DNA of 64,000 bases, taken from Candidatus Yanofskybacteria bacterium. GTDB lineage: Bacteria; Patescibacteriota; Minisyncoccia; 2-02-FULL-40-12; IGHO2-01-FULL-4-A. Both the position numbers and the translations under genes were made by a program. Below are positions 20,524 through 45,446 of this stretch, one piece after another (positions within the stretch are counted from its first letter, which is position 1; each line of letters begins with the position of its first letter). The notes under the pieces were generated by a model. The model saw only the letters and a list, made by a program, of their open reading frames with translations, ran no database searches and was not told the origin of the DNA. The DNA lies in contig JACPNJ010000003.1 of the NCBI GenBank assembly GCA_016185545.1, positions 2,567 through 66,566 of the forward strand, in the 5' to 3' direction.

Positions 20524-20745
20524 ATGAATTTTGCGGATTTCTTTTACTATAACGGGGCATTACTGATCCTACTCACAGCTATTAGCCTGTCTATCTGGGG
20601 CATATATGTTGTTACCAAATCTAAACGAGCAATAAAAAGAATCATCGGTTGGCTGGTAATTATCGTCTGTGTGCCATATTCACTATTGAGCTTCTATTAT
20701 TATTTAGAAACTGTCCTGAGACCTTGGCTCCATAGTATTCTCTGA
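20524..20745 (+). CDS. small 73-aa protein, two predicted transmembrane helices with basic loop (KSKRAIKR); same architecture as 18314-18514
   Basis: ORF track; good RBS; opposite strand to the rRNA. Confidence 0.45.
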   Translation: MNFADFFYYNGALLILLTAISLSIWGIYVVTKSKRAIKRIIGWLVIIVCVPYSLLSFYYYLETVLRPWLHSIL

Positions 20746-20809
20746 ATAACACTACATCCAATTTTCAAGTCGCGTCTTCATGGACCGACTTTTTTATTTA
20801 GAGTTTGGC

Positions 20810-20965
20810 TGAATAATGCCTTATAGCACCGTCAAAATTGTGTGATTGCATGGTCGGCGAGCAGTATAATAGTAAAGCACTGCGAGGTGAATCCACGCTT
20901 TCAACGGAGCGACGCAACCTCGCTGGGGTTGCTAGCGGTGATAGAAGATATTATTCAGCCAGACT
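20810..20965 (-). repeat. repeat element C copy 2 (flanked by ggctgaataat / attattcagcc)
   Basis: See 9165-9320. Confidence 0.6.
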
Positions 20966-21119
20966 CAAGCTAAACTCAAGTCCAAAAATTTGAGCGGGTA
21001 ATACGCGCTTTTAACACTCGGTTTCCCTACGACTCCGTGCTCTCGCACTTAGTCTACAGCTTGTAAAAACTCGTTGGATCATTCTTCAATAGGCACACCG
21101 TCGCACTACGCTACCGCTT

Positions 21120-21250
21120 CGTGCTCCGAAATCAAAAGTTAAAATGCAAAAGTCAAAATTATAGATGTTCTGAAATTTTGCTAGCAAAATTTCAGAACTC
21201 CACACTTTTGAACTTTGATTTTTGAATTTTGAATTTCGAGACGAACACGA
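21120..21250 (-). repeat. hairpin element family B copy 2 (caaaagttaaaatgcaaaagtcaaaattatagatgttctgaaattttgctagcaaaatttcagaactcc...) in 23S helix-25 region
   Basis: Aligns to 19020-19140 by eye. Confidence 0.55.
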
Positions 21251-21315
21251 AGCGATAGCGAGTGTTCCGGCTCTTTGTAGGCATATGGTTTCAGTTCTAT
21301 TTCACTCCCCTCACC

Positions 21316-21349
<34 letters not shown>

Positions 21350-21444
21350 TCACTATCGATCACCAAAAGTATTTAGTCTTGGACCGTAGTAGGCCCGGAT
21401 TCGCCACGGATAGTCTGCTCCATGGGTACTTAGGGTAGGAGCTC

Positions 21445-21605
21445 ACCTTAAAATTATCTTTCTACTGCAGTTTAATAATTTTGGCTGCGACTTCGTCAGA
21501 TTTCACAAAATGTCCTCGCCGTAGTATAAACTACGCCTCCGGTGATTTTGTTCATCTTCCTCGTCTCGCCAGAAATTATTAAATTTCGCAACGAAAATAA
21601 CTTTA
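21445..21605 (-). repeat. about 160-nt 23S insertion bounded by gagctcaccttaaa / tttaaggtgagctc inverted repeats
   Basis: Inverted repeat seen directly. Confidence 0.45.
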
Positions 21606-21959
21606 AGGTGAGCTCATAATATGAAAAGTTTGATCGTTTTCGCTTAAGGGACTATCACCCGCTTTGGTCGGCCTTTCCAGGACCGTTCGGCTAACAATCA
21701 AATTTGTAACTTTTTTCCAAAACACAACTGAAGACCGCGAACGATCCTCGGCTGTGCTTAGAGTATATTATCCCTGCAACCCTTACCTATTATTAGTAAA
21801 CTAACAAAAGATAAGTTTAGACTGTGCCCCTTTCGCTCGCCGCTACTTAGGGTATGTTTGCGCCTTGCGGCGCATTTGTTTTATTTTCCTCTGGCTACTG
21901 AGATGTTTCACTTCGCCAGGTATGCATCTAGTAGCTAGTTTCTGGTAACTAGTTGCTAG

Positions 21960-22313
21960 TTATTTAAAACTCTTGATAAGATTAAATAACTGCTTACCGC
22001 AGATAGTATATTCACTGATCAAATTTTCATGGTCAGTTTCGCTGATTAACCCAGCATCCTTCATAAAGTTGAGATTAAACAGAACCTCGTCATTAGAACC
22101 CAGCGCATCGTTCAAAAAATTAACTTTATCTTTGGTAGACTTATTTCTACCAAATCCCTCCGCGATATTTGATGGTATTGATCTTGAAGCTCTTCTAATT
22201 TGATCGCAAAGATCATATTTAAGTTCTTTTGGAAGTTTCATAGACAACTGGTGAACTTTTAACGCCAACTTGTAGGACCGATTATATACGTCAAGGTCTT
22301 TATACGAATTCAT
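21960..22313 (-). CDS. four-helix-bundle 23S rRNA intervening-sequence protein (TIGR02436-like), encoded within the helix-9 intervening sequence (21941-22356), which is closed by CTAG-rich inverted repeats
   Basis: ORF track: MNSYKDLDVYNRSYKLALKVHQL...RRASRSIPSNIAEGFGR; insertion lies between GGAAATC...CCCATGCCGGGTAATACC and GAAGTGAAACATCTC (helix 9, the classical intervening-sequence site). Confidence 0.8.
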   Translation of the reverse strand: MNSYKDLDVYNRSYKLALKVHQLSMKLPKELKYDLCDQIRRASRSIPSNIAEGFGRNKSTKDKVNFLNDALGSNDEVLFNLNFMKDAGLISETDHENLISEYTICGKQLFNLIKSFK

Positions 22314-23271
22314 AAAAATTTACCAGAAACTAGAAACCAGAAACCAGCTACTAGATATGCCGGTATTACCCGGCATGGGTTTCCCCATTCGGAAATCTCC
22401 GGATCAAAGCCTGCTAGACGGCTCCCCGAAGCATATCGTCGTCACGCCACGTCCTTCGTCGCCTTTTGGTGTCAAGGCATCCTCCATACGCCCTTATATT
22501 CCTTACAAGATTAAATCTGCAATCATTAGATTGCACCCTTCGTAGCTCTGCGAAGCTTTAGCGTAGCAGAGCGAAGTAGGGCCTCATTTAATCTTCTTGA
22601 TGCTTCAAAACTGGCAACTCTTGAACTCGGAAAGTTAGAGAACAACCAGAAAATGCAAAGCATCATTTTATTTTTAATCCCGTTAGAGGTAGGTTGCCGC
22701 CTATGGCAACCGCAAGCTCTAATCGGGATACCCGCTAACTATTCATTTTTTAAATTGCAATCTATTCAATCAGTTTAGTGTTAGCTTCCGTCGGGCACCA
22801 CCTCGATAAACAAGGTGACGCCCGACGACAGCCAATTTATTGATGAAACCCCAGCACCAATTTTGCAAAGTCTAATAACGGCAGGGCGCTTCGCCCATTG
22901 CAGAATATGCCCATTCGGCACGCGCACCCTGCAAAATCTTGGCTAACGTATCATATTTATTTAGCAACTACCAACTAAATTAGGCAAAATGGTGCGGGGT
23001 TATTTTTTGTTTCCATGCTCACTATCGCTGCGCTTGGACAAAAAATAAATCCCGCCAAGCGGGACGTTTTCGGGCACAAATTAACACCAAGACGTCATCC
23101 GCTTTTTTGTAATGCTTTGTTTAATTTTTTCATCCCGTACGAGACAGGATAAGCCTTGCGGCTTATCCGTATCTTATTATATTATATCTACCTTATTAAT
23201 CCCGATTAGATAGCTACTCTAACTTTATTTACTAGCAAAGGCTGTCTCGTTCGGGATTCATCATCAAAATC

Positions 23272-36684: not shown

Positions 36685-36709
36685 AAAACCGCCTTTTCCA
36701 AAAGCGGAG

Positions 36710-38299
36710 TTAAATGACAATCTCGTGCGCGCGCAACATCATCCGTATTTTTTCAATATCCGGCTGAAGGGGGCGGTCATTGGCGAGGTACCGGACTTGG
36801 CTGCGGATTTGCTCATAGATTTCTTTTGTTTTTGGAGCAAGAGTTTTTCGCGCTTTTCCAGCTCCGCCATTCCGCTTATCCACGGCTTGCGTAAGAATAA
36901 TTAATGTTGCGGCAAGAAGTCTCCTATACTCTTCGTTAAGTTCAAGTGCGCGTTCTGCTGATGCAAACCCGAAGCTTACCACATCCTGATTATTTGATTC
37001 GGTGGCCCGGCGGTGAATACTCATGGGACCCGCAAGAAAACAAATTTTTCCGAAAACATCCGTGGTGCCGATATCAACACCCTTGAAACCGCTATTAAAC
37101 CCGGGCTGTGTCCCCGCAAGACTCGCGCCCAATTTGCGGTTATATTTCTCATTGAGCAAACGCGATTTCAGGGCATGCAAGAGGTCGGCAATATTGAACA
37201 TGGCAAGCTTTAAAATATCCATTCCCAGCGCTACGTAGAAACCTGAAAAATTACCGGTATGATGCACTTTCATTTGTTTGAGATCGGTAATGGGATTGTC
37301 ATTAGCCGAGTTCATTTCCCGGGTAATCCATGGGCGAACGACTTTTTCTACAAGTTCTAATGTGGGACCTAAAATTTGAGGCGCGCAGCGGATGGAATAA
37401 GGATCTTGCAGCTCTATATCGGTTTCTTTTACGTGTTTGGAGTCTTTAGCAATCCAGGAAACTTTAGCCCGAAGTTCGTCAATATCTTTAGTCAAACTGC
37501 TGCCACGGAGGCAATCATTTAAAACGTGTGCCGCATAACTTTGCCCTTGATGGTTTTTCACCTTGTGGACAAATTCATCAAGATGGTCGGTCATGCCTTC
37601 CAGCGCTTCAGTGGCTAACGCCTCGCAAAATATCGAAAGCGTTAAAAGATACTCCGCGTCATAAACCGCAAGCGCCGCCATTGCGGTTGAAACCGATGTG
37701 CCATTGACGATTGACAGACCCTCTTTTTCTTCCAAGACAAGGGGACTGATTTTTAATTGGCTGAATACCTTGGCTGTTTTTCGTATCCGTCCTTTATGCC
37801 AAACCCCGCCCTTTCCCTGAATAACCTGGGCGATAGAAGCAAGTGGTACCAGATCGCCACTGGCACAGACCGAACCGTCCTCATACATAACCGGAATTAC
37901 ATCTTCATTAAGAAGTTGTATTATTTTTTGAATTTTATCCAAACCGATAGCGGAACAACCGTCTTTAACAAGCGAATTGACACGCAATAACATTGCGCCC
38001 CTGGAAATCTCTGGTGATAATTCTCTGCCTATACCGCAGGAAAGTGAATCTATAAGCCGTGGCTGAAATGCTTTGCGTTTTTCTTTTGGAATAATTTTGC
38101 CCACATTCGCGCCAACTCCCATGCCATCACCGTAGGCAAGTATTCCGCTTTCCAGATAAAACCGCCTGCTTTCCTCTATAAGCCGCAGGATTTGCGGGTC
38201 GTCAGTAAGAACAGTAAAAACCTTGCGCTGTGCGACTCCGGCAACATCCTTAATGGTCAAGTTGTTTCCGTCAACAATTACTTCTTCCGGAAAATTCAT
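36710..38299 (-). CDS. aromatic amino acid ammonia-lyase / aminomutase family enzyme (HAL/PAL/TAL, MIO cofactor Ala-Ser-Gly)
   Basis: GSVCASGDLVPLASIA (MIO-forming ASG triad) and NQDVVSFG motif; 529 aa. Confidence 0.75.
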   Translation of the reverse strand: MNFPEEVIVDGNNLTIKDVAGVAQRKVFTVLTDDPQILRLIEESRRFYLESGILAYGDGMGVGANVGKIIPKEKRKAFQPRLIDSLSCGIGRELSPEISRGAMLLRVNSLVKDGCSAIGLDKIQKIIQLLNEDVIPVMYEDGSVCASGDLVPLASIAQVIQGKGGVWHKGRIRKTAKVFSQLKISPLVLEEKEGLSIVNGTSVSTAMAALAVYDAEYLLTLSIFCEALATEALEGMTDHLDEFVHKVKNHQGQSYAAHVLNDCLRGSSLTKDIDELRAKVSWIAKDSKHVKETDIELQDPYSIRCAPQILGPTLELVEKVVRPWITREMNSANDNPITDLKQMKVHHTGNFSGFYVALGMDILKLAMFNIADLLHALKSRLLNEKYNRKLGASLAGTQPGFNSGFKGVDIGTTDVFGKICFLAGPMSIHRRATESNNQDVVSFGFASAERALELNEEYRRLLAATLIILTQAVDKRNGGAGKARKTLAPKTKEIYEQIRSQVRYLANDRPLQPDIEKIRMMLRAHEIVI

Positions 38300-39813
38300 A
38301 AAGCCTCCGATTTTCGCAGTTCTTTTTTGAGAATCTTACCAGTGGGCGTTTTGGGAATTTGTTCAACAAATCTCACTCCGCCCAGCCGATAATAGCCGGG
38401 AAATTTATTTTCCACCGCATTTATAATTTCCGCTTCGGCGGGCGCGGGACTACCGGCCACTAGATACGCAAACGGCATTTCACCCTTTTCCTTATCCGGC
38501 ACGCCGATAATGCCAACGTCTTTTATCCGTTCCCCAAAATGAGTATTGATGAACTTCTCCATTTCTCGCGGCCAAACGGAGAATCCACTGACTTTAATCC
38601 GGTCGTTTTTCCGGTCAACAATTCTTAAATACCCCGCCCCGTCAATTATTCCAATATCGCCGGTAAAAAACCAGCCGTTTCGTATCGCCTCGCGTGTCGT
38701 TTCGGTATCGTCAAAATACCCTTGGAATACATTTGGTCCTCTTACAATTATCTCACCGGTTTCGCCGGAGCCAAGTTTTATGCCACCCTCATCAACGATT
38801 CCGATTTCCACGCCATTAATCGGCGTACCCACGCTTCCGGGAACATAGCGGGTTTCATGATTGTACGTGGCAAACGGAGAGGTTTCGGTAAGTCCCCAAC
38901 CTTCCCAGATTTGCCGGCCGTATTTTCCAATCCATGCCAGCGCTATTTCTTCAGGCATAGTGTCTGCCGCGGTAAAAAAGTACCGGACGGTTTCAAATGG
39001 TCTTATGTCCTTAAGATTAAGAAGCGCCCGGTAATTCGGCGGAATAGAGAAAAACATCGTAACAGAATTCAAAACCAATGATTCCAATATCTCATTGGGC
39101 ATAAACCGCTTGTGCAAAATGAGCGTGCCCAGCGCGTTAAAAATCGCGTTCATTACAAAATTTTGGCCGAAGCAATGGAACAATGGAAGAAAACACATTA
39201 CACGGTCATAGTTCCGCATGCCTGTATATCTCCGCACGGCTTGGATGTTGGAAACGACATTGCCGTGCGAAAGTATAGCGCCTTTTTGTTCTCCCGTCGT
39301 GCCGGAAGTATAAAGAATAAACGCCGGATCGTCCGGCTGGAGTTCGCATTTCGGAGGAACGATATCATGATTCAACATTTCCCAAAGATTTAGACATTGC
39401 TTTGAAGGAGAGTCTCCTATCACCACGATTTTCTCAAGATTGCACGCGCTCAAAGCGAATGACGCTTCGCCCCAAAGCTCCTCGCAAGTAACCAATACTT
39501 TCACCCTTGAACGCTCTATGTATTTGCCAACCCCCTCGCTTTTCAAGGCAGAACTTAAAAGTACGGGAACGGCTCCGATGCGCAACGCGCCATAGGTAAC
39601 TATCGGATATTCCAACATATTGGGAAGAAAAACCGCCACTCTGTCCCCCTTTTTCACGCCCAGTCGGGCCAAACCACCGCTAAATCTCTCTGCGTAACCG
39701 AAAAGTTGCCTATAGTTTAGCGTATAAAAATTACCGCTGGCTTCCTGAAAACGTAACGCGTCTTTTGCCGGATAATGTTTTACGGCCCGCTCTAAAACAT
39801 CAAAAAGGTTCAT
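38296..39813 (-). CDS. AMP-dependent acyl-CoA / aryl-CoA ligase (adenylate-forming enzyme)
   Basis: YTSGTTGEQKG, GWGLTE, GDIG..DGAGYLRIVDRKND motifs; 4-bp overlap with the ammonia-lyase gene. Confidence 0.8.
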   Translation of the reverse strand: MNLFDVLERAVKHYPAKDALRFQEASGNFYTLNYRQLFGYAERFSGGLARLGVKKGDRVAVFLPNMLEYPIVTYGALRIGAVPVLLSSALKSEGVGKYIERSRVKVLVTCEELWGEASFALSACNLEKIVVIGDSPSKQCLNLWEMLNHDIVPPKCELQPDDPAFILYTSGTTGEQKGAILSHGNVVSNIQAVRRYTGMRNYDRVMCFLPLFHCFGQNFVMNAIFNALGTLILHKRFMPNEILESLVLNSVTMFFSIPPNYRALLNLKDIRPFETVRYFFTAADTMPEEIALAWIGKYGRQIWEGWGLTETSPFATYNHETRYVPGSVGTPINGVEIGIVDEGGIKLGSGETGEIIVRGPNVFQGYFDDTETTREAIRNGWFFTGDIGIIDGAGYLRIVDRKNDRIKVSGFSVWPREMEKFINTHFGERIKDVGIIGVPDKEKGEMPFAYLVAGSPAPAEAEIINAVENKFPGYYRLGGVRFVEQIPKTPTGKILKKELRKSEAL

Positions 39814-39863
39814 GGAAAAACCTCCTGAATTATTTGTAAAAGTTCAAGAATTTCAAGGTCAAG

Positions 39864-40685
39864 CTATCTCTTTTTTACTTCCCAGTCAAGATGCATTTTG
39901 GGAAGCATCATCTCCGGCCGCCAGGTTTTTTTGAGTTCATTTATGTTTTGAGAAAGCTGGTATTTGCCGCCCTCGCCGACATAGTCAAGTGTTTTCACCC
40001 CGTTAGAAGTAGCCTCGCCGAGGTCCTTCGGACTCGTCCCGTTAGAGAGCGTGAACGCCCTAGACTTGCCGTCAATCACATTTTTCTTATCTTGCCTAGA
40101 CTCTCTAACGGGACGAGCGAGACTTCTAACGGGGTGAACCGTAAGCGGAGCAACTTCATAAAATACCATCTGTGCGATACGTCTGCTGACGACAAGAGGA
40201 ATAGTATAGTGTTTGGAATTGTTTGTAACCTCCATCGTCCAACGGTTAAAATAGCCCACATCTCCCCAGCCGGCATCCTTGCACACTTCAATAAAATTGC
40301 GCCCCAAAGAAGACCGCGCGTACATTTTGGCCACGCAAATATCGCGTCCACCTATGAATTCCTGCGTGTGCGCCAAAATTGTTTCGCCTGGAGCAAGAAG
40401 AATCACTCGTGCTTTGTTGGGAATGTTTTTAAATTCTGCGGCAAGACGTTTGCTGATGACACCGGCTGGCTCGGCGCGGAACGGCCCCTGCCAGACGTTG
40501 CTTGTTGAACTGGCATCGTAAATATTGTGGATGGTCGCCCGGCCAGCTGGATGACCTTCGCGCCAAAACCACTCGCCCAGAGTTACGTCATAGCTTGTTG
40601 TTTTGAGCTGTTTTTTATTGAACGGCTCAATCACAATTGTTCCCTGTCGTAAATGATTTAAAATTTTATTTTGCGATAAAAGCAT
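39864..40685 (-). CDS. dcd: dCTP deaminase/dUTPase-fold protein with about 90-aa C-terminal extension
   Basis: SYDVTLGEWF, LAPGETILAHTQE, DAGWGDVGYFNRWTMEVTN match Dcd blocks. Confidence 0.65.
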   Translation of the reverse strand: MLLSQNKILNHLRQGTIVIEPFNKKQLKTTSYDVTLGEWFWREGHPAGRATIHNIYDASSTSNVWQGPFRAEPAGVISKRLAAEFKNIPNKARVILLAPGETILAHTQEFIGGRDICVAKMYARSSLGRNFIEVCKDAGWGDVGYFNRWTMEVTNNSKHYTIPLVVSRRIAQMVFYEVAPLTVHPVRSLARPVRESRQDKKNVIDGKSRAFTLSNGTSPKDLGEATSNGVKTLDYVGEGGKYQLSQNINELKKTWRPEMMLPKMHLDWEVKKR

Positions 40686-40717
40686 GGGTTTAAGAGATTA
40701 ACTTTGTCGGAAATATT

Positions 40718-40898
40718 AAACTTTGCTCTAACTTATTTTACCGAAAAACTCTGAAAGAGGAAAGCGGCACGCCATAGACGTGCCGCACTGTCTCTAAAAA
40801 TCACTCAGACGGCTCGGCATTCCTCCCCCCAACCCCTTCCTGCCGAGCCGTCCTCGCTAGTGAGGGATATTTTTGATTGGACGGAGTTAGATTTCGGG
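40718..40898 (+). repeat. IR-A (181 bp), inverted partner at 43523-43703
   Basis: RC of 43523-43703 is nearly identical (aaactttgctctaacttattttaccgaaaaactctgaaagaggaaagcggcacgcc...gattggacggagttagatttcggg). Confidence 0.8.
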
Positions 40899-41130
40899 CC
40901 TTTATTTATCACTGTTTTTATGTTAAAGTTTTTACATTGACAACTTGATTGCCTAACCCTCGTGGCTTGTCTGCGAGATATGGCACAAAAAATCCCATCC
41001 CTGATACCGAACCCCTCGTTCAGCGACTCAGGGATGGGTCATACTCGAAAGGGTATGTGGACCGAGAGGTCCTACGCTAGCAGGGGGCTTTGTGTTCCCG
41101 CAAGCGGCATAGGTTTTACCCATCCCTACT

Positions 41131-42246
41131 ATGCCCCCAAAATTACAAACCGCAGATAAAGTTCTGGTCTCTATAATAATTCCCGTCTATAACGAAGAAA
41201 GATTTGTTGCCAAAGTTATTGAACGAGTGCTGGAGGCTGATTTAGGCTTTTCTAATACACATAAAGAAATTGTAGTAGTCAACGACGGTTCATCCGATAA
41301 TACCTTTAGTGAGATATCTAAATTTGAGAATTCAATTAAGATAGTAAGTCTTGATAAAAATCAGGGCAAAGGGACAGCTCTAAGAAAAGGGTTTGCAATA
41401 GCAAATGGCGATATTCTTCTCATTCAAGATGCTGATTTTGAATATGATCCAAAAGATTATCATGAACTTTTAAAACCGATTATTGAAAATAAGGCCGACG
41501 TTGTTTACGGCTCGCGTTTTATCGGCGGTCAATCTCACAGAGTTTTATTTTTTTGGCACTACCTGGCAAATTTATTCCTTACTTTATTAAGCAACATGTT
41601 CTCCAATCTTAATCTTACTGATATGGAGACAGGATACAAAGCATTTCGAAAAGAAGCAATTAATTCCATATCTCTAAAAGAAACCCGATTTGGATTTGAA
41701 CCGGAAGTGACTATTAAACTTGCCCAGCAAGGTTGGAAATTTTATGAGATTGGAATTTCTTACAATGGAAGAAGTTATGCCGAGGGAAAGAAAATATCTT
41801 GGATAGATGCGGCCAGAGCTCTGTTTGTAATTTTTAAATATGGCCTCAACAAGCAAGCTGTTGCTATCATACTGATTGCTATACTTTTAATCTCTGGGTC
41901 ATTGGGTGTATCAAAAGATATAATTAGATTTTTCAAACAAATCCCACCTGCTTTATCTCAAGAATTACCAGGACAAAAATTTACTCCACTCATTAGTTAT
42001 GTTGCTAATAAAAAAGAGGTTGGATTTTTAGACAATAACGAACAGCAAGAGTATTTAAAAGATTTTTATCAGGCTCAAAATATATTAGCCCCCGTAATTA
42101 TTAAAGAAGGTTCCGAGTCAGAATTTATTATTGTTTCAAATTACAGACCATCGTCTATAAACGAACTCAAAACAAAATTAAACGCAGAAGTAATCGCCGA
42201 ATTTCATCAAGGGTCCATTTACTTACTGCAAAAAAATGGCTACTAG
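41131..42246 (+). CDS. family-2 glycosyltransferase (dolichol-phosphate mannosyltransferase-like) with C-terminal extension
   Basis: IIIPVYNEE...VVVNDGSSD...IQDADFEYDP GT2 motifs. Confidence 0.8.
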   Translation: MPPKLQTADKVLVSIIIPVYNEERFVAKVIERVLEADLGFSNTHKEIVVVNDGSSDNTFSEISKFENSIKIVSLDKNQGKGTALRKGFAIANGDILLIQDADFEYDPKDYHELLKPIIENKADVVYGSRFIGGQSHRVLFFWHYLANLFLTLLSNMFSNLNLTDMETGYKAFRKEAINSISLKETRFGFEPEVTIKLAQQGWKFYEIGISYNGRSYAEGKKISWIDAARALFVIFKYGLNKQAVAIILIAILLISGSLGVSKDIIRFFKQIPPALSQELPGQKFTPLISYVANKKEVGFLDNNEQQEYLKDFYQAQNILAPVIIKEGSESEFIIVSNYRPSSINELKTKLNAEVIAEFHQGSIYLLQKNGY

Positions 42247-43534
42247 CATTTATTTTTTATCTGTTGCACTGGTTGGGTATTTATCTTCCAGATTGACGGA
42301 AAAGTATAAATCTCACTTTGCACATATCATTCCGTTGGGACTTGGTATCACGGGATTATTTTATTTTTGGGATATTTTAATCTGGAATAAATTTAATCTC
42401 GCCGGTTTTATAATTTTTGTATTATTTTTTGCGCTATTGACAGTTTTGTTCTTGAGGATTAAAAAGATCAGAATTATTACTCCTATAGAATTCAATCTTC
42501 TAGATTTAATTATTCTCGGGCTACTTTTGTTAGTAGCTTTACAGCAAATTTATGGATATTGGGATGCATGGGCAATTTGGAACACTAAGGCTAAATTTTT
42601 GACGTCCGAAAACTGGCAACAACTATTTTCTCCACAGATTAAATGGATGCACCCCGATTATCCACTACTACTCCCTTCAATTGTAGCGGCTGGCTGGTCG
42701 GTCTCTAACACTTTTAACCCGGTTGTTCCATTCGTAGTCGCTTTACTTTTTTCTTGGTCTATCTACCTACTCGTAAAAGATTGGATTTCTCACTTATTTA
42801 ATAACAGCGTTTACGGAGTTTTAGGTGGTTTGTTAATGATATCTTTACCAGCGTTTCTTCGTTGGAGTGGCAGTCAATATGCCGATATACCATTAGCAAA
42901 TTTTATTTTATTGGGTGTCACTCTTTTATATTTCAGTACAAAAAATTTATCAGTTTTTATAAGTGGCTCTGCTTTTGGTATGGCTATATTTACAAAAAAT
43001 GAGGGATTACTTTATTTTGTTTTGATTTTAGCGAGTTTTATATATACATTTTGGAGAATAAATAAAAAAATACCGTTTAAATCAGTAATGCTATTGCTTG
43101 GCGGTGCACTTCCTGGGATTCTATCTTCTCTGGTCGTGAAAAATTATGCGACAAGAAACGAATTTATAACCAACTTTCCCAATATAATTTCTTCAATATC
43201 TTTCCATAGAATTTTCTTAATTCTCGAAGGATTCTTACGTGAATTTTTAGCTTGGAAAGAATGGATTGTATTTTGGATTATAGCAATTATTTTTCTTGTT
43301 TTTCTGCATAAACGAGAAAAAGAACATTATTTTTGGAACACGTTTTTTACCGTATTGATTGTTTTGTGTTTTGTTTCTTTTTTCTTTATTTATCTTGTTA
43401 CACCGCAAGATGTTGTCTGGCATATTCAAACTTCATTCAACAGGCTACTGATCCAAATTTTTCCGTTGGTAATAGTATCTATTTTTATCAGATTAAGACA
43501 TCTTAAGATCAAGCAGGCTTTTCCCGAAATCTAA
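42236..43534 (+). CDS. GT-C fold membrane glycosyltransferase (ArnT / PMT-like, about 11 transmembrane helices); 3' end lies inside IR-A'
   Basis: Polytopic; overlaps the GT2 gene by 11 nt. Confidence 0.6.
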   Translation: MATSIYFLSVALVGYLSSRLTEKYKSHFAHIIPLGLGITGLFYFWDILIWNKFNLAGFIIFVLFFALLTVLFLRIKKIRIITPIEFNLLDLIILGLLLLVALQQIYGYWDAWAIWNTKAKFLTSENWQQLFSPQIKWMHPDYPLLLPSIVAAGWSVSNTFNPVVPFVVALLFSWSIYLLVKDWISHLFNNSVYGVLGGLLMISLPAFLRWSGSQYADIPLANFILLGVTLLYFSTKNLSVFISGSAFGMAIFTKNEGLLYFVLILASFIYTFWRINKKIPFKSVMLLLGGALPGILSSLVVKNYATRNEFITNFPNIISSISFHRIFLILEGFLREFLAWKEWIVFWIIAIIFLVFLHKREKEHYFWNTFFTVLIVLCFVSFFFIYLVTPQDVVWHIQTSFNRLLIQIFPLVIVSIFIRLRHLKIKQAFPEI

Positions 43535-43703
43535 CTCCGTCCAATCAAAAAATATCCTTTACCGACGAGGACGGCTCGGCAGGAAGGGGTTGGGGGGAGG
43601 AATGCCGAGCCGTCTGAGTGATTTTTAGAGACAGTGCGGCACGTCTATGGCGTGCCGCTTTCCTCTTTCAGAGTTTTTCGGTAAAATAAGTTAGAGCAAA
43701 GTT
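43523..43703 (+). repeat. IR-A' (inverted copy of IR-A)
   Basis: See IR-A. Confidence 0.8.
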
Positions 43704-43711
43704 TAGAATCG

Positions 43712-43852
43712 TCGACAAAAAGATACTTTCGGATTCGGAGACAGAAAAATCAGGTCGCGCCAAAGGCGCGAATGGAATGGTGGGGGCGCATCCCGCGAGG
43801 CGGGACGCAAGAAAACCAGATGGTGGAATGAATGAAAAAGAAAGGGAGCGGT
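43712..43852 (+). repeat. IR-B (141 bp), perfect inverted partner at 45216-45357
   Basis: RC of 45216-45357 is identical by eye (aaaaagatactttcggattcggagacagaaaaatcaggtcgcgccaaaggcgcgaatggaatggtgggggcgcatcccgcgagg...). The two reading frames across the two copies give the same peptide (DRSLSFSFIPPSGFLASRLAGCAPTIPFAPLARPDFSVSESESIFL). Confidence 0.85.
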
Positions 43853-43892
43853 CTACGCTAGAAAATCTACTGAAGATGAGGAACGGCAAGTT

Positions 43893-45446
43893 ATGAGTAT
43901 TGAAGCGCAACTTGCTGAACTCAAGGAATACGCCAAGCGAGAAAATATTTTGATTTCCGAAACTTTTATTGAATCAAAAAGCGCAAAGAAACCAGGACGA
44001 GAAGTTTTTAATGAAATGATGGCTAAGGTGGAATCATCTAGAGAACCTGTTGGCCTTCTCGCCTGGCACCCTGATCGTCTTGCCAGAAACTCTATTGATG
44101 GCGGTCAAATAATCTACTCCATAGATCAAAGTAAAATTGTTTCTTTGCGCTTCCCTACTTTTTGGTTCGAACCAACTCCTCAAGGATTATTTATGCTTCA
44201 AGTGGCGTTTGGACAATCTAAATATTATTCGGATAATCTTTCCGAAAATGTTAAGCGCGGTATCCGCCAAAAACTTCGTCGCGGAGAATGGCTTACTAAA
44301 GCACCTTTTGGATATTTGAATAACCCCAAGACAAGGACAATAGAACCGCACCCCACGCTTTCAAAAATCCTCGTCAAAGCATTTGAAGCATACGCAACGG
44401 GAAAATATACCTTAGAAAGTTTGGGAAGGTTTTTGGCGGAATATGGTATTGAATCAAAGAACCGAACGCCACTTTCTAAAGCTAATATCAAAAGAATTCT
44501 CACTAACCAAGCATATCTCGGTCTTATCGCCCATAAAGGAGAATATTTTGAGGGCAAATTCCAACCAATTCTCAACCGCGCAACATTTGAAGCCGTGCAA
44601 GAAGTATTACAACAAAGAGCCAAGCCAAGAAAGACAAAGCAAGGTCATAATTTCCCGTTTACAGGCTTAATGACTTGCGGAGAATGTAATTCTCAAATAA
44701 CCGCTCAATGGACTAAAGGAAAATCAGGAGGAATATATCGCTATTATCGTTGTACTAAAAAACGAGGTGCTTGTTCACAAAAATATATCCAAGAAAAAGA
44801 CCTCGTCATACAAATTAAGACACGGCTTCAATCTGTTGCGCTTCCCGATACTCATACAGATTGGATGCTCAAGAAAGTTGATGAGTGGGACAAAGATAAA
44901 ACTAACAAAACAGCATCGTCCGTCCAAAATATCAAATTCAAAATTGTTGAAACGCAAGAGAAACTAGATAAACTTGTTTCCGCCTACATGGACGGCGATA
45001 TTCCAAAAGAAAGTTATCTCACCAAGAAAGAAGATTTACTCAAAATCAAAGTTTCTCTTGTCGAACAGAAAACGAAACCGAACCAGAAAAATCCGCTCGA
45101 ACCCTTGCGCCAATGGGTTTTAGACACGAAAAAAGCCAGTTTCCTAGCTTCTTCCGAAAACTATCACGAAATGAAGCAGATTATCCAAAAGATCGGAACG
45201 AACCCCAAACTTTCAGACCGCTCCCTTTCTTTTTCATTCATTCCACCATCTGGTTTTCTTGCGTCCCGCCTCGCGGGATGCGCCCCCACCATTCCATTCG
45301 CGCCTTTGGCGCGACCTGATTTTTCTGTCTCCGAATCCGAAAGTATCTTTTTGTGTCTCATCGTCCCGAACGATGCATGTTGCCGATACACTACAGCCCG
45401 TTTTCGCTCGCAAAAACGAGTTACTCAACATAATATTTCTTTTTAA
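43893..45446 (+). CDS. large serine recombinase (resolvase/invertase catalytic domain, recombinase domain, zinc ribbon); its C-terminal about 75 aa are encoded by IR-B'
   Basis: LAWHPDRLARNSIDGGQIIYSI (Ser-recombinase active-site region), CGECNS...YRYYRC zinc ribbon. Confidence 0.85.
   Translation: MSIEAQLAELKEYAKRENILISETFIESKSAKKPGREVFNEMMAKVESSREPVGLLAWHPDRLARNSIDGGQIIYSIDQSKIVSLRFPTFWFEPTPQGLFMLQVAFGQSKYYSDNLSENVKRGIRQKLRRGEWLTKAPFGYLNNPKTRTIEPHPTLSKILVKAFEAYATGKYTLESLGRFLAEYGIESKNRTPLSKANIKRILTNQAYLGLIAHKGEYFEGKFQPILNRATFEAVQEVLQQRAKPRKTKQGHNFPFTGLMTCGECNSQITAQWTKGKSGGIYRYYRCTKKRGACSQKYIQEKDLVIQIKTRLQSVALPDTHTDWMLKKVDEWDKDKTNKTASSVQNIKFKIVETQEKLDKLVSAYMDGDIPKESYLTKKEDLLKIKVSLVEQKTKPNQKNPLEPLRQWVLDTKKASFLASSENYHEMKQIIQKIGTNPKLSDRSLSFSFIPPSGFLASRLAGCAPTIPFAPLARPDFSVSESESIFLCLIVPNDACCRYTTARFRSQKRVTQHNISF
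45216..45357 (+). repeat. IR-B'
   Basis: See IR-B. Confidence 0.85.

Follow-up and report, generated by a model that had tools for sequence, protein, structure and literature searches.

A predicted lyase–ligase operon for aromatic amino acid breakdown in Candidatus Yanofskybacteria

The gene pair and its signals

The window analysed here, a 64-kb stretch of a Candidatus Yanofskybacteria contig, carries on its minus strand two adjoining genes, one for an aromatic amino-acid ammonia-lyase dependent on the 4-methylideneimidazole-5-one (MIO) cofactor (36710–38299, 529 aa) and one for an AMP-forming acyl/aryl-CoA ligase (38296–39813, 505 aa). The first, taken from the open reading frame (ORF) list and matched by PF00221, is of the phenylalanine ammonia-lyase (PAL) type; the second, matched by PF00501 and PF13193, is a stand-alone enzyme without carrier or condensation domain. 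We propose, with a probability of roughly 0.6, that this pair opens the breakdown of an aromatic amino acid; the substrate of the lyase is probably phenylalanine. The enzyme pair is of a known kind, a bacterial PAL with an arylacrylate-CoA ligase. What appears to be new is that the lyases form a distinct subfamily whose selectivity residues are non-canonical, that this subfamily recurs in several lineages of the candidate phyla radiation (CPR) and that its setting looks catabolic rather than biosynthetic.

The stop codon of the ligase and the start codon of the lyase share the four nucleotides ATGA (38296–38299; the coordinates of all operon features refer to the minus strand), in the context ...GCT TTA TGA / ATG AAT..., with GGAGG 8 nt 5′ of the lyase ATG. 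Because the two ORFs overlap in this manner, their translation is likely to be coupled. The original prediction had named a 529-aa MIO enzyme with an Ala-Ser-Gly triad, its start overlapping by 4 nt the stop of an adenylate-forming CoA ligase with the motif YTSGTTGEQKG, and both descriptions held up. The triad that forms the MIO cofactor, Ala146-Ser147-Gly148, lies within the motif GSVCASGDLVPL at 37856–37864, in a protein matched by PF00221 over its full length, and the ligase motif is the phosphate-binding loop (residues 168–178, 39280–39312). A promoter-like site, TTGAAA-16-AATAAT followed by AGGAGG (39829–39856; a consensus match only, at 10/12 positions), precedes the ligase, and a terminator-like hairpin with a T run (36689–36707; again a consensus match only) lies directly 3′ of the lyase stop. 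By its layout the pair is a two-gene operon bounded by these two predicted sites. Its GC content of 46–47% is slightly higher than the window mean of 43%, and a Candidatus Yanofskybacteria metagenome-assembled genome at NCBI encodes proteins 100% identical to the lyase and to the ligase.

Active site and phylogeny of the lyase

The lyase matches PF00221 at 435 bits (gathering threshold 27.3; E = 3e-130), its residues 14–499 aligning with profile positions 1–465 of 466. The active site was read against reference sequences, of which PpHAL (a histidine ammonia-lyase, HAL), RsTAL (a tyrosine ammonia-lyase, TAL), SgTAM (a tyrosine aminomutase, TAM) and PcPAL are identical or near-identical to PDB chains 1GKM, 2O6Y, 2RJR and 1W27, and AdmH and AvPAL were taken from PDB-search alignments. 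The A146-S147-G148 triad, Y56, R304, N199 and Y301 align with PcPAL S203, Y110, R354, N260 and Y351 respectively. Across the clade described below Tyr56, the Ala-Ser-Gly triad (unchanged in 24/24 aligned sequences), Asn199, Tyr301, Arg304, Asn335, Phe351 and Gln438 are invariant or nearly so. Sixteen of 18 active-site positions are identical to those of PcPAL, including the MIO serine, Y110, N260, Y351, R354, N384, F400, N487 and Q488. Also kept are four residues that help to discriminate PALs, namely PcPAL K456 (M in RsTAL, A in SgTAM, M in AdmH and M in PpHAL), E484 (N, N, T and S in the same order), I460 (V, Y, F and V) and L138 (L, H, V and H). Judged by these residues, the lyase is an intact MIO enzyme with a PAL-type active site.

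The two departures from the PcPAL pocket are Ser85 in place of F137 and Val62 in place of F116. Val62 lies with the catalytic Tyr56 in the inner-loop motif Y56-GDGMGVGANV (38102–38134), and Ser85 is the first residue of the selectivity switch Ser85-Leu86 (38042–38047), which maps by alignment onto PcPAL F137-L138. The hydrophobic aryl pocket of PcPAL (L134, F137, L138, L206, L256 and I460; PMC6055856) is otherwise retained, with five of its six positions identical in the lyase and Ser85 standing at the sixth, F137. Elsewhere the switch reads F-L in PALs (PcPAL and AvPAL both have Phe at 137), H-L in RsTAL and S-H in PpHAL and SgTAM. The original prediction had singled out these selectivity residues, and their inspection gave neither the HAL S-H, the PAL F-L nor the TAL H-L pair. 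A His at the PcPAL-138 position characterises HALs, and a polar residue such as His at position 137 leads to TAL activity (PMC9226071). At the site of the TAL hallmark His (RsTAL H89, equivalent to PcPAL 137) the lyase has Ser85, and in place of the HAL hallmarks (PpHAL H83 and E414) it has Leu86 and Gln438, with NQD instead of NQED. The PcPAL variants F137V and F137A accept naphthyl-, styryl- and biphenyl-alanines, which the wild type converts at under 1–6% (PMC6055856). The pocket of the window lyase appears to be widened at its two altered positions, and tyrosine or bulkier rings are possible substrates. A small residue at 137 does not rule out phenylalanine, because AdmH, a phenylalanine aminomutase, uses this substrate with Ala at that position.

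Model scores are of little help in naming the class. The NCBIfam Phe aminomutase, HAL, PAL and flexirubin TAL models give near-equal scores of 329–347 bits, other TAL and aminomutase models score lower, and the lyase reaches no equivalog cut-off (500–1250). It scores 338.8 bits against a cut-off of 519.15 for TIGR01226 (phe_am_lyase), 335.3 against 539.15 for TIGR01225 (hutH), 329 against 700 for the flexirubin FlxA model and 280 against 501 for TIGR03832 (aminomutase), and the BagA model is also far under its cut-off. Because the models score alike and all far under their cut-offs, the class cannot be assigned by score.

Homologues of the lyase at 50–84% identity occur in Yanofskybacteria, Giovannonibacteria, Sungbacteria and on other contigs, after which identity drops to 39% or less. 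These homologues form a clade with 100% bootstrap support in neighbour-joining (NJ) trees. In a 24-sequence alignment its loop reads YGDxMGVGANV, compared with the canonical YG[VI][NT]TG[FY]G, and of the 26 clade sequences in a larger alignment 17 have an S-L switch and nine an A-L switch. Placed among HAL, PAL, TAL and TAM enzymes, as the original prediction had suggested, the clade is a separate one near the PALs: in the NJ trees it groups with StlA-like PALs (a neighbouring clade that includes the NCBI-named PAL StlA, 99% bootstrap) and with AvPAL and PcPAL, and PpHAL, RsTAL, SgTAM and AdmH fall outside that grouping. Its sequences define a distinct subfamily, with non-canonical selectivity residues, of a known kind of enzyme. 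An exclusively CPR origin of the clade was considered and rejected, since the A-L sub-branch sits on contigs of 54–60% GC, one of them labelled Solibacteraceae, whose neighbouring genes do not look like those of CPR bacteria. The clade is therefore CPR-dominated rather than CPR-exclusive, and horizontal transfer is likely.

The sister of the clade (70–95% bootstrap in NJ trees) is a second Patescibacteria MIO group (P0041, P0049 and P0085), which also has a Ser-Leu switch and in which FESGNQD replaces the usual TE..NQD. No ligase was found near the lyase at the one readable locus of this group (L095 8001–9521).

The ligase, its linkage to the lyase and the surrounding genes

The ligase (PF00501 at 281 bits, E = 2e-83, with PF13193) keeps, besides its phosphate-binding loop, the TGDIG motif and a C-terminal PTGKILKK (38323–38346), which holds the conserved adenylation lysine and aligns with PSGKILRK of Pt4CL1. 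These motifs are those of an intact stand-alone AMP-forming CoA ligase of the ANL superfamily. The best PDB relative is A. fulgidus FadD-1, and ranks 2–7 are hydroxycinnamate-CoA ligases, with plant 4-coumarate-CoA ligases (4CLs) and a feruloyl-CoA synthetase among the best relatives. The pocket was mapped on Pt4CL1 (3A9U) using five substrate-binding residues (PMC8430942). Two of the five are identical, Gly331 and Pro337 corresponding to Gly307 and Pro313 of the window ligase, and three are conservative replacements, with Phe215 for Tyr236, Ala283 for Gly306 and Phe314 for Val338. A pine 4CL of high cinnamate affinity likewise has Phe replacing the stacking Tyr (PMC12917453), and Phe215 is a hint of a non-hydroxylated aryl acid as substrate. 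Beyond the clade, the nearest relatives of the ligase (42–47% identity) belong to a large family annotated as long-chain fatty-acid-CoA ligases, and the predicted pocket residues of the lyase-linked ligase family are identical from CPR through Binatia. We suggest that this 'long-chain fatty-acid-CoA ligase' family of Binatia, Acidobacteria and related soil and groundwater bacteria probably consists of arylacrylate-CoA ligases, which would serve a lyase-ligase-thiolase/DUF35 breakdown of aromatic amino acids.

An orthologous ligase, 37–82% identical to that of the window, directly adjoins the lyase in 10/10 distinct readable clade loci (the window, L001, L003/L016, L008/L018, L010/L013, L011, L012/L017, L014, L015 and L019). 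Further clade loci were sought by a scan of metagenome contigs, which returned one member, identical to L008, and by a genome scan, which returned seven. In the Yanofskybacteria and Sungbacteria loci the ligase gene precedes the lyase gene on the same strand; in the remaining clade loci the two genes diverge. Because adjacency persists across this rearrangement, the two genes are, on comparative grounds, functionally linked and not neighbours by chance. The picture is different in 73 outgroup genome loci with lyase homologues, many of them actinomycete, where the AMP-binding genes nearby are only 24–33% identical to the window ligase. Outside the CPR, in 4/4 loci, a StlA-like lyase gene is followed immediately by a ligase gene of the same family. 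Two of these loci (L093 and L094) were found by way of the nearest outgroup lyases and two (L176 and L177) by way of two ligase relatives chosen regardless of context. The lyases of L093, L094 and L177 have the F-L switch.

The genes linked to the pair across CPR and non-CPR relatives belong to amino-acid and acyl-CoA catabolism. In the Giovannonibacteria loci L008/L018 the pair lies beside an enoyl-CoA hydratase, a short-chain dehydrogenase/reductase (SDR), an acetyl-CoA C-acyltransferase (above its cut-off) and a second AMP ligase, and also present are a Thiolase_C_1 protein and then an ORF with a weak zf-ChsH2 match (184 aa in L018). A 161-aa protein of L008 was rejected as a DUF35 partner: it matches nothing in Pfam or NCBIfam and does not resemble the DUF35 proteins that L176 and L177 encode. 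Near the pair in L012 are 2-oxoacid dehydrogenase E1/E2, an acyl-CoA dehydrogenase, a B12 mutase, a thiolase, an H+-translocating pyrophosphatase (H+-PPase) and an amino-acid dehydrogenase. The last, of the Leu/Phe/Trp type, belongs to the ELFV family and lies within 1.5 kb 3′ of the lyase both there (L012 13105–14391) and in L003 (9636–10973), where it is directly adjacent. The best NCBIfam model for the L012 copy is tryptophan dehydrogenase of the ScyB type (264 bits, under the cut-off), not glutamate dehydrogenase, and the L003 copy is 45% identical to it. Two Giovannonibacteria loci have an H+-PPase gene a few kb from the pair (L012 15321–17372; L018 14344–16299, 3 kb off), and a divergent thiolase is near the pair in the Sungbacteria locus L001. 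A class-III aminotransferase near the L011 pair, followed as a lead towards beta-amino acids, was rejected because it is ArgD (486 bits, above the equivalog-level cut-off).

Among the non-CPR loci, L093, L094 and L176 carry 4-hydroxyphenylpyruvate dioxygenase (HppD) and homogentisate dioxygenase (HgmA), with fumarylacetoacetase in L093 and L094. Thiolase_C_1 proteins are present in L093 (one) and in L176 and L177 (two each), two DUF35 proteins and IDO occur in L176 and L177, and a thiolase and a 3-hydroxyacyl-CoA dehydrogenase are encoded in L176 as well. The cluster seen in Binatia, 'Deltaproteobacteria' and others (L176 4153–16146, L177 6330–14857, L093 and L094) comprises a StlA-like PAL, a ligase annotated as a long-chain fatty-acid-CoA ligase, two Thiolase_C_1 and two DUF35 (zf-ChsH2/OB_ChsH2_C) proteins; it adjoins the homogentisate genes in L093, L094 and L176 and IDO in L176 and L177. 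This lyase-ligase-thiolase/DUF35 cluster looks like an undescribed route of phenylalanine side-chain cleavage.

In the window itself, Pfam scans covering nearly all ORFs of at least 110 aa gave RpoB/C, FtsW, ClpB, a family 2 glycosyltransferase (GT2), a recombinase, a CCA-adding enzyme, a tRNA synthetase and similar proteins; the window further contains a 23S rRNA, LAGLIDADG genes and type IV pilins. A dCTP-deaminase-like gene (39864–40685, minus strand, 273 aa; PF22769, E = 8e-31) lies upstream of the ligase, so that all three genes run head to tail, with a gap of 50 nt that contains the promoter-like site. The original prediction had placed this gene just upstream of the pair and remarked on an odd C-terminal extension. 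Its position and strand are as described, but a tie to the pair was not borne out: it adjoins the pair only in two Yanofskybacteria loci, the window and L010, and the promoter-like site intervenes. It is probably not part of the lyase–ligase module, no functional tie being seen. The extension is also real, but is largely a 47-aa in-frame insertion (141 nt, 39999–40139) that is missing from the 73%-identical L010 ortholog, the rest of the C-terminal tail being common to both. At the DNA level the insertion forms a nested palindrome whose arms (CACCCCGTTAGAAGT..., CGTCCCGTTAGAGAG...) measure 17 nt, and its folding energy is predicted at −74 to −77 kcal/mol. It is reminiscent of the palindromic elements found inserted in Rickettsia genes with the reading frame preserved.

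Further upstream, long inverted repeats at 40703–40898 and 43523–43719 (94–100% complementary) surround the GT2 glycosyltransferase gene and one for a multi-pass membrane protein, and a second pair at 43715–43854 and 45215–45354 (100% complementary) surrounds most of a large serine recombinase gene. L010 has none of this 4.7-kb block (40703–45354) between its CCA-adding-enzyme and dcd-like genes; the block has the look of a cassette, perhaps invertible, that was inserted immediately upstream of the operon. A match to the LOOT RNA (Rfam RF03000; 40950–41073, plus strand; 69.5 bits, gathering threshold 46.4) lies just inside the left inverted repeat, 5′ of the GT2 gene. At 14378–22508 (minus strand) a 23S rRNA match is stretched over 5.2 kb for a 2.9-kb model, and two LAGLIDADG endonuclease ORFs (15582–16193 and 16566–17174) are located in the interval from the 23S 3′ end to the 5S gene.

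Proposed function and comparison with known systems

In the route that we propose, the MIO enzyme would deaminate an L-aromatic amino acid, with phenylalanine as the likeliest substrate, to leave a trans-arylacrylate (cinnamate) and ammonia. The ligase, made from the same mRNA, would then use ATP and CoA to form the arylacryloyl-CoA, as its family, its motifs and the strict gene linkage suggest. In a third step, for which the indications come from relatives only, the arylacryloyl-CoA would be hydrated, oxidised and split by thiolytic or retro-aldol cleavage into acetyl-CoA and an aroyl-CoA or aldehyde. Among Giovannonibacteria, Sungbacteria and non-CPR relatives, genes for this step adjoin the orthologous pair; the window documents the first two steps only. 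The product of an ammonia-lyase is a 2-enoate, and its CoA ester is a direct substrate of enoyl-CoA hydratase; a hydratase next to the pair therefore fits the product expected of the lyase. The likely benefits would be ammonia, acetyl-CoA and reducing equivalents drawn from scavenged amino acids. Perhaps the pyrophosphate released by the ligase is consumed by the H+-PPase that lies close by in two relatives, which might regain some of the energy spent by the AMP-forming ligases.

Several points weigh against this proposal. Ser or Ala at the switch instead of the canonical Phe, together with Val for F116, means that phenylalanine can be named only as the probable substrate. The best PDB match of the lyase is the aminomutase AdmH (3UNV), and the top NCBIfam model, by a small margin, is that for Phe aminomutase (TIGR04475, 347 bits against a cut-off of 800). 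Bootstrap support is weak (50–52%) at the deep nodes of the NJ trees. When the relatives' proteins were used in tblastn, no match to the hydratase, SDR, thiolases, acyl-CoA dehydrogenase or amino-acid dehydrogenase was obtained in the 64-kb window. An AMP-forming ligase spends two ATP equivalents, and the energetic gain is uncertain. In the closest relative, also a member of the Yanofskybacteria (L010 6576–7869), the ligase is without about 29 codons (window residues 35–63) and has a change of frame next to an intact lyase; this copy is perhaps a pseudogene and the pair dispensable, or else the assembly is in error.

The widened pocket suggests an alternative, which we regard as unlikely, that the clade is an enlarged-pocket subfamily acting on an aromatic amino acid outside the known ammonia-lyase range, for example tryptophan (giving indoleacryloyl-CoA) or a bulky or substituted aryl-alanine. 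If this were true, it would represent a previously unknown non-oxidative route for the degradation of that amino acid in CPR bacteria.

Another possibility, for us an improbable one, is that a PAL or TAL and a 4CL-type ligase supply cinnamoyl- or coumaroyl-CoA as a starter for a phenylpropanoid, aryl polyketide, aryl polyene or chromophore. The same enzyme pair is found in the enterocin, flexirubin and photoactive yellow protein (PYP) chromophore pathways (PMC8773403, PMC3992019), and 4CLs are among the close PDB relatives of the ligase. However, no gene for a polyketide synthase (PKS; type III or ketosynthase), nonribosomal peptide synthetase (NRPS), carrier protein, PAS/PYP protein or tailoring enzyme was found near the pair in the window or in the ten clade loci, and the genes that are linked to it belong to beta-oxidation and amino-acid catabolism. 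In the neighbourhoods of the non-CPR relatives, too, no PKS, NRPS or carrier protein was seen. Moreover, it is the biosynthetic-looking actinomycete outgroup loci whose AMP-binding genes are so distant (24–33% identity) from the window ligase. The natural-product readings of the original prediction, which ranged from phenylpropanoids and aryl polyketides to an aminomutase with an adenylating enzyme, are likewise not supported by these findings, and a natural-product cluster was rejected, the Pfam scans of nearly all window ORFs of 110 aa or more being free of PKS, NRPS and acyl carrier protein matches. Our best reading is that side-chain shortening suits the data better than natural-product synthesis.

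We consider it similarly improbable that the MIO enzyme is a 2,3-aminomutase forming a beta-aryl-beta-amino acid that the ligase would activate as its CoA ester. We know of no reliable sequence feature that tells MIO lyases from aminomutases, and the leading matches to AdmH and TIGR04475, as well as the small residue (Ala) that AdmH has at PcPAL-137, speak for this reading. Yet the margins over PAL matches are trivial (229 bits for AdmH against 219; 347 bits for TIGR04475 against 339–345) and all these model scores are far under the cut-offs. AdmH and SgTAM lie outside the group that holds the clade (98% in one NJ tree, 82% in the other), and at K456/E484 the lyase is PAL-type, against M/T in AdmH and A/N in SgTAM. 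The enoyl-CoA hydratase beside the pair in L008 suits an enoate product, and the sole nearby aminotransferase is ArgD.

A reverse salvage, in which the lyase would aminate environmental cinnamate or coumarate to feed a Phe/Tyr auxotroph and the ligase would have an unrelated role, is very improbable. Amino-acid biosynthesis is generally missing in CPR organisms (PMC5220378) and PALs do run backwards at molar ammonia, but the concentrations required are very high (6 M buffers; PMC6055856), and the strict linkage to the ligase and to hydratase and thiolase genes would be left unexplained. An ordinary histidine ammonia-lyase with a coincidental ligase neighbour was rejected as hardly tenable, for although NCBIfam HAL models score about like PAL models (335–345 bits), the lyase has Leu rather than His at PcPAL-138, Gln438 for the HAL Glu (NQD, not NQED) and 335 bits against the hutH cut-off of 539, PpHAL is outside its group in the trees, the ligase is linked in 10/10 loci and Pfam scans of window ORFs 110 aa or longer gave neither hutU nor hutI, so that the original prediction was right both about the missing hut partners and in not taking the gene for a plain hutH.

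The breakdown of an aromatic amino acid that we favour would be unusual in its host. CPR bacteria are regarded as fermentative symbionts with very few catabolic routes. Beta-oxidation has been reported as a rarity among them (PMC5220378), and the metabolism that the original prediction had called unexpected for a reduced-genome CPR organism is an ability uncommon in the CPR, though not unprecedented. In the literature we found no paper tying an MIO lyase to CPR metabolism, nor one describing this lyase–ligase subfamily. Across Yanofskybacteria, Giovannonibacteria and Sungbacteria, the module would add scavenged aromatic amino acids to the carbon and nitrogen sources of the CPR. The clade also varies naturally at a residue that engineers have mutated to broaden the substrate range of PAL, and its members may be of use as biocatalysts.

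Compared with known systems, HutH (PpHAL, 1GKM) shares the fold, the MIO chemistry and a Ser at the first switch position with the window lyase, but differs in its second-switch His and Glu414 (NQED), where the lyase has Leu86 and Gln438 (NQD) and the window has no hut genes. AdmH, a Pantoea Phe 2,3-aminomutase, is the top-scoring solved structure and also has a small switch residue, but it has M, T and F at the positions of K406, E434 and N437 of the lyase, branches elsewhere and is partnered by NRPS and PKS proteins. Pairs of a TAL and a 4CL, as in the flexirubin (FlxA with 4CL) and PYP chromophore systems, likewise couple a lyase to a hydroxycinnamate-CoA ligase (PMC3992019); unlike these, the window lyase is without the switch His and the window has no pigment or PYP genes. 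Of the plant and cyanobacterial PALs (PcPAL, 1W27; AvPAL, 2NYN), PcPAL shares 16/18 active-site residues with the lyase, which departs from it in Ser for F137, in Val for F116 and in being without the plant C-terminal shielding domain. StlA-type PAL of Photorhabdus and its relatives are the nearest named group (35–39% identity) and have the same ligase family in L093, L094, L176 and L177, but their canonical F-L (or H-L) switch and YGVNTG[FL]GGN loop contrast with S/A-L and YGDxMGVGANV in the clade. In pathway logic the proposed route is like that of EncP, EncH, EncI and EncJ of Streptomyces maritimus, which take phenylalanine through cinnamoyl-CoA to benzoyl-CoA in the enterocin pathway by means of a PAL, a CoA ligase, an enoyl-CoA hydratase and beta-oxidation-like shortening (PMC8773403). 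The Enc genes lie within a polyketide cluster and feed a starter unit, whereas the window pair has only the first two genes, no PKS, and catabolic neighbours in its relatives. The likeness to Enc is seen in the Giovannonibacteria locus L008, which has lyase, ligase, enoyl-CoA hydratase, SDR and thiolase together.

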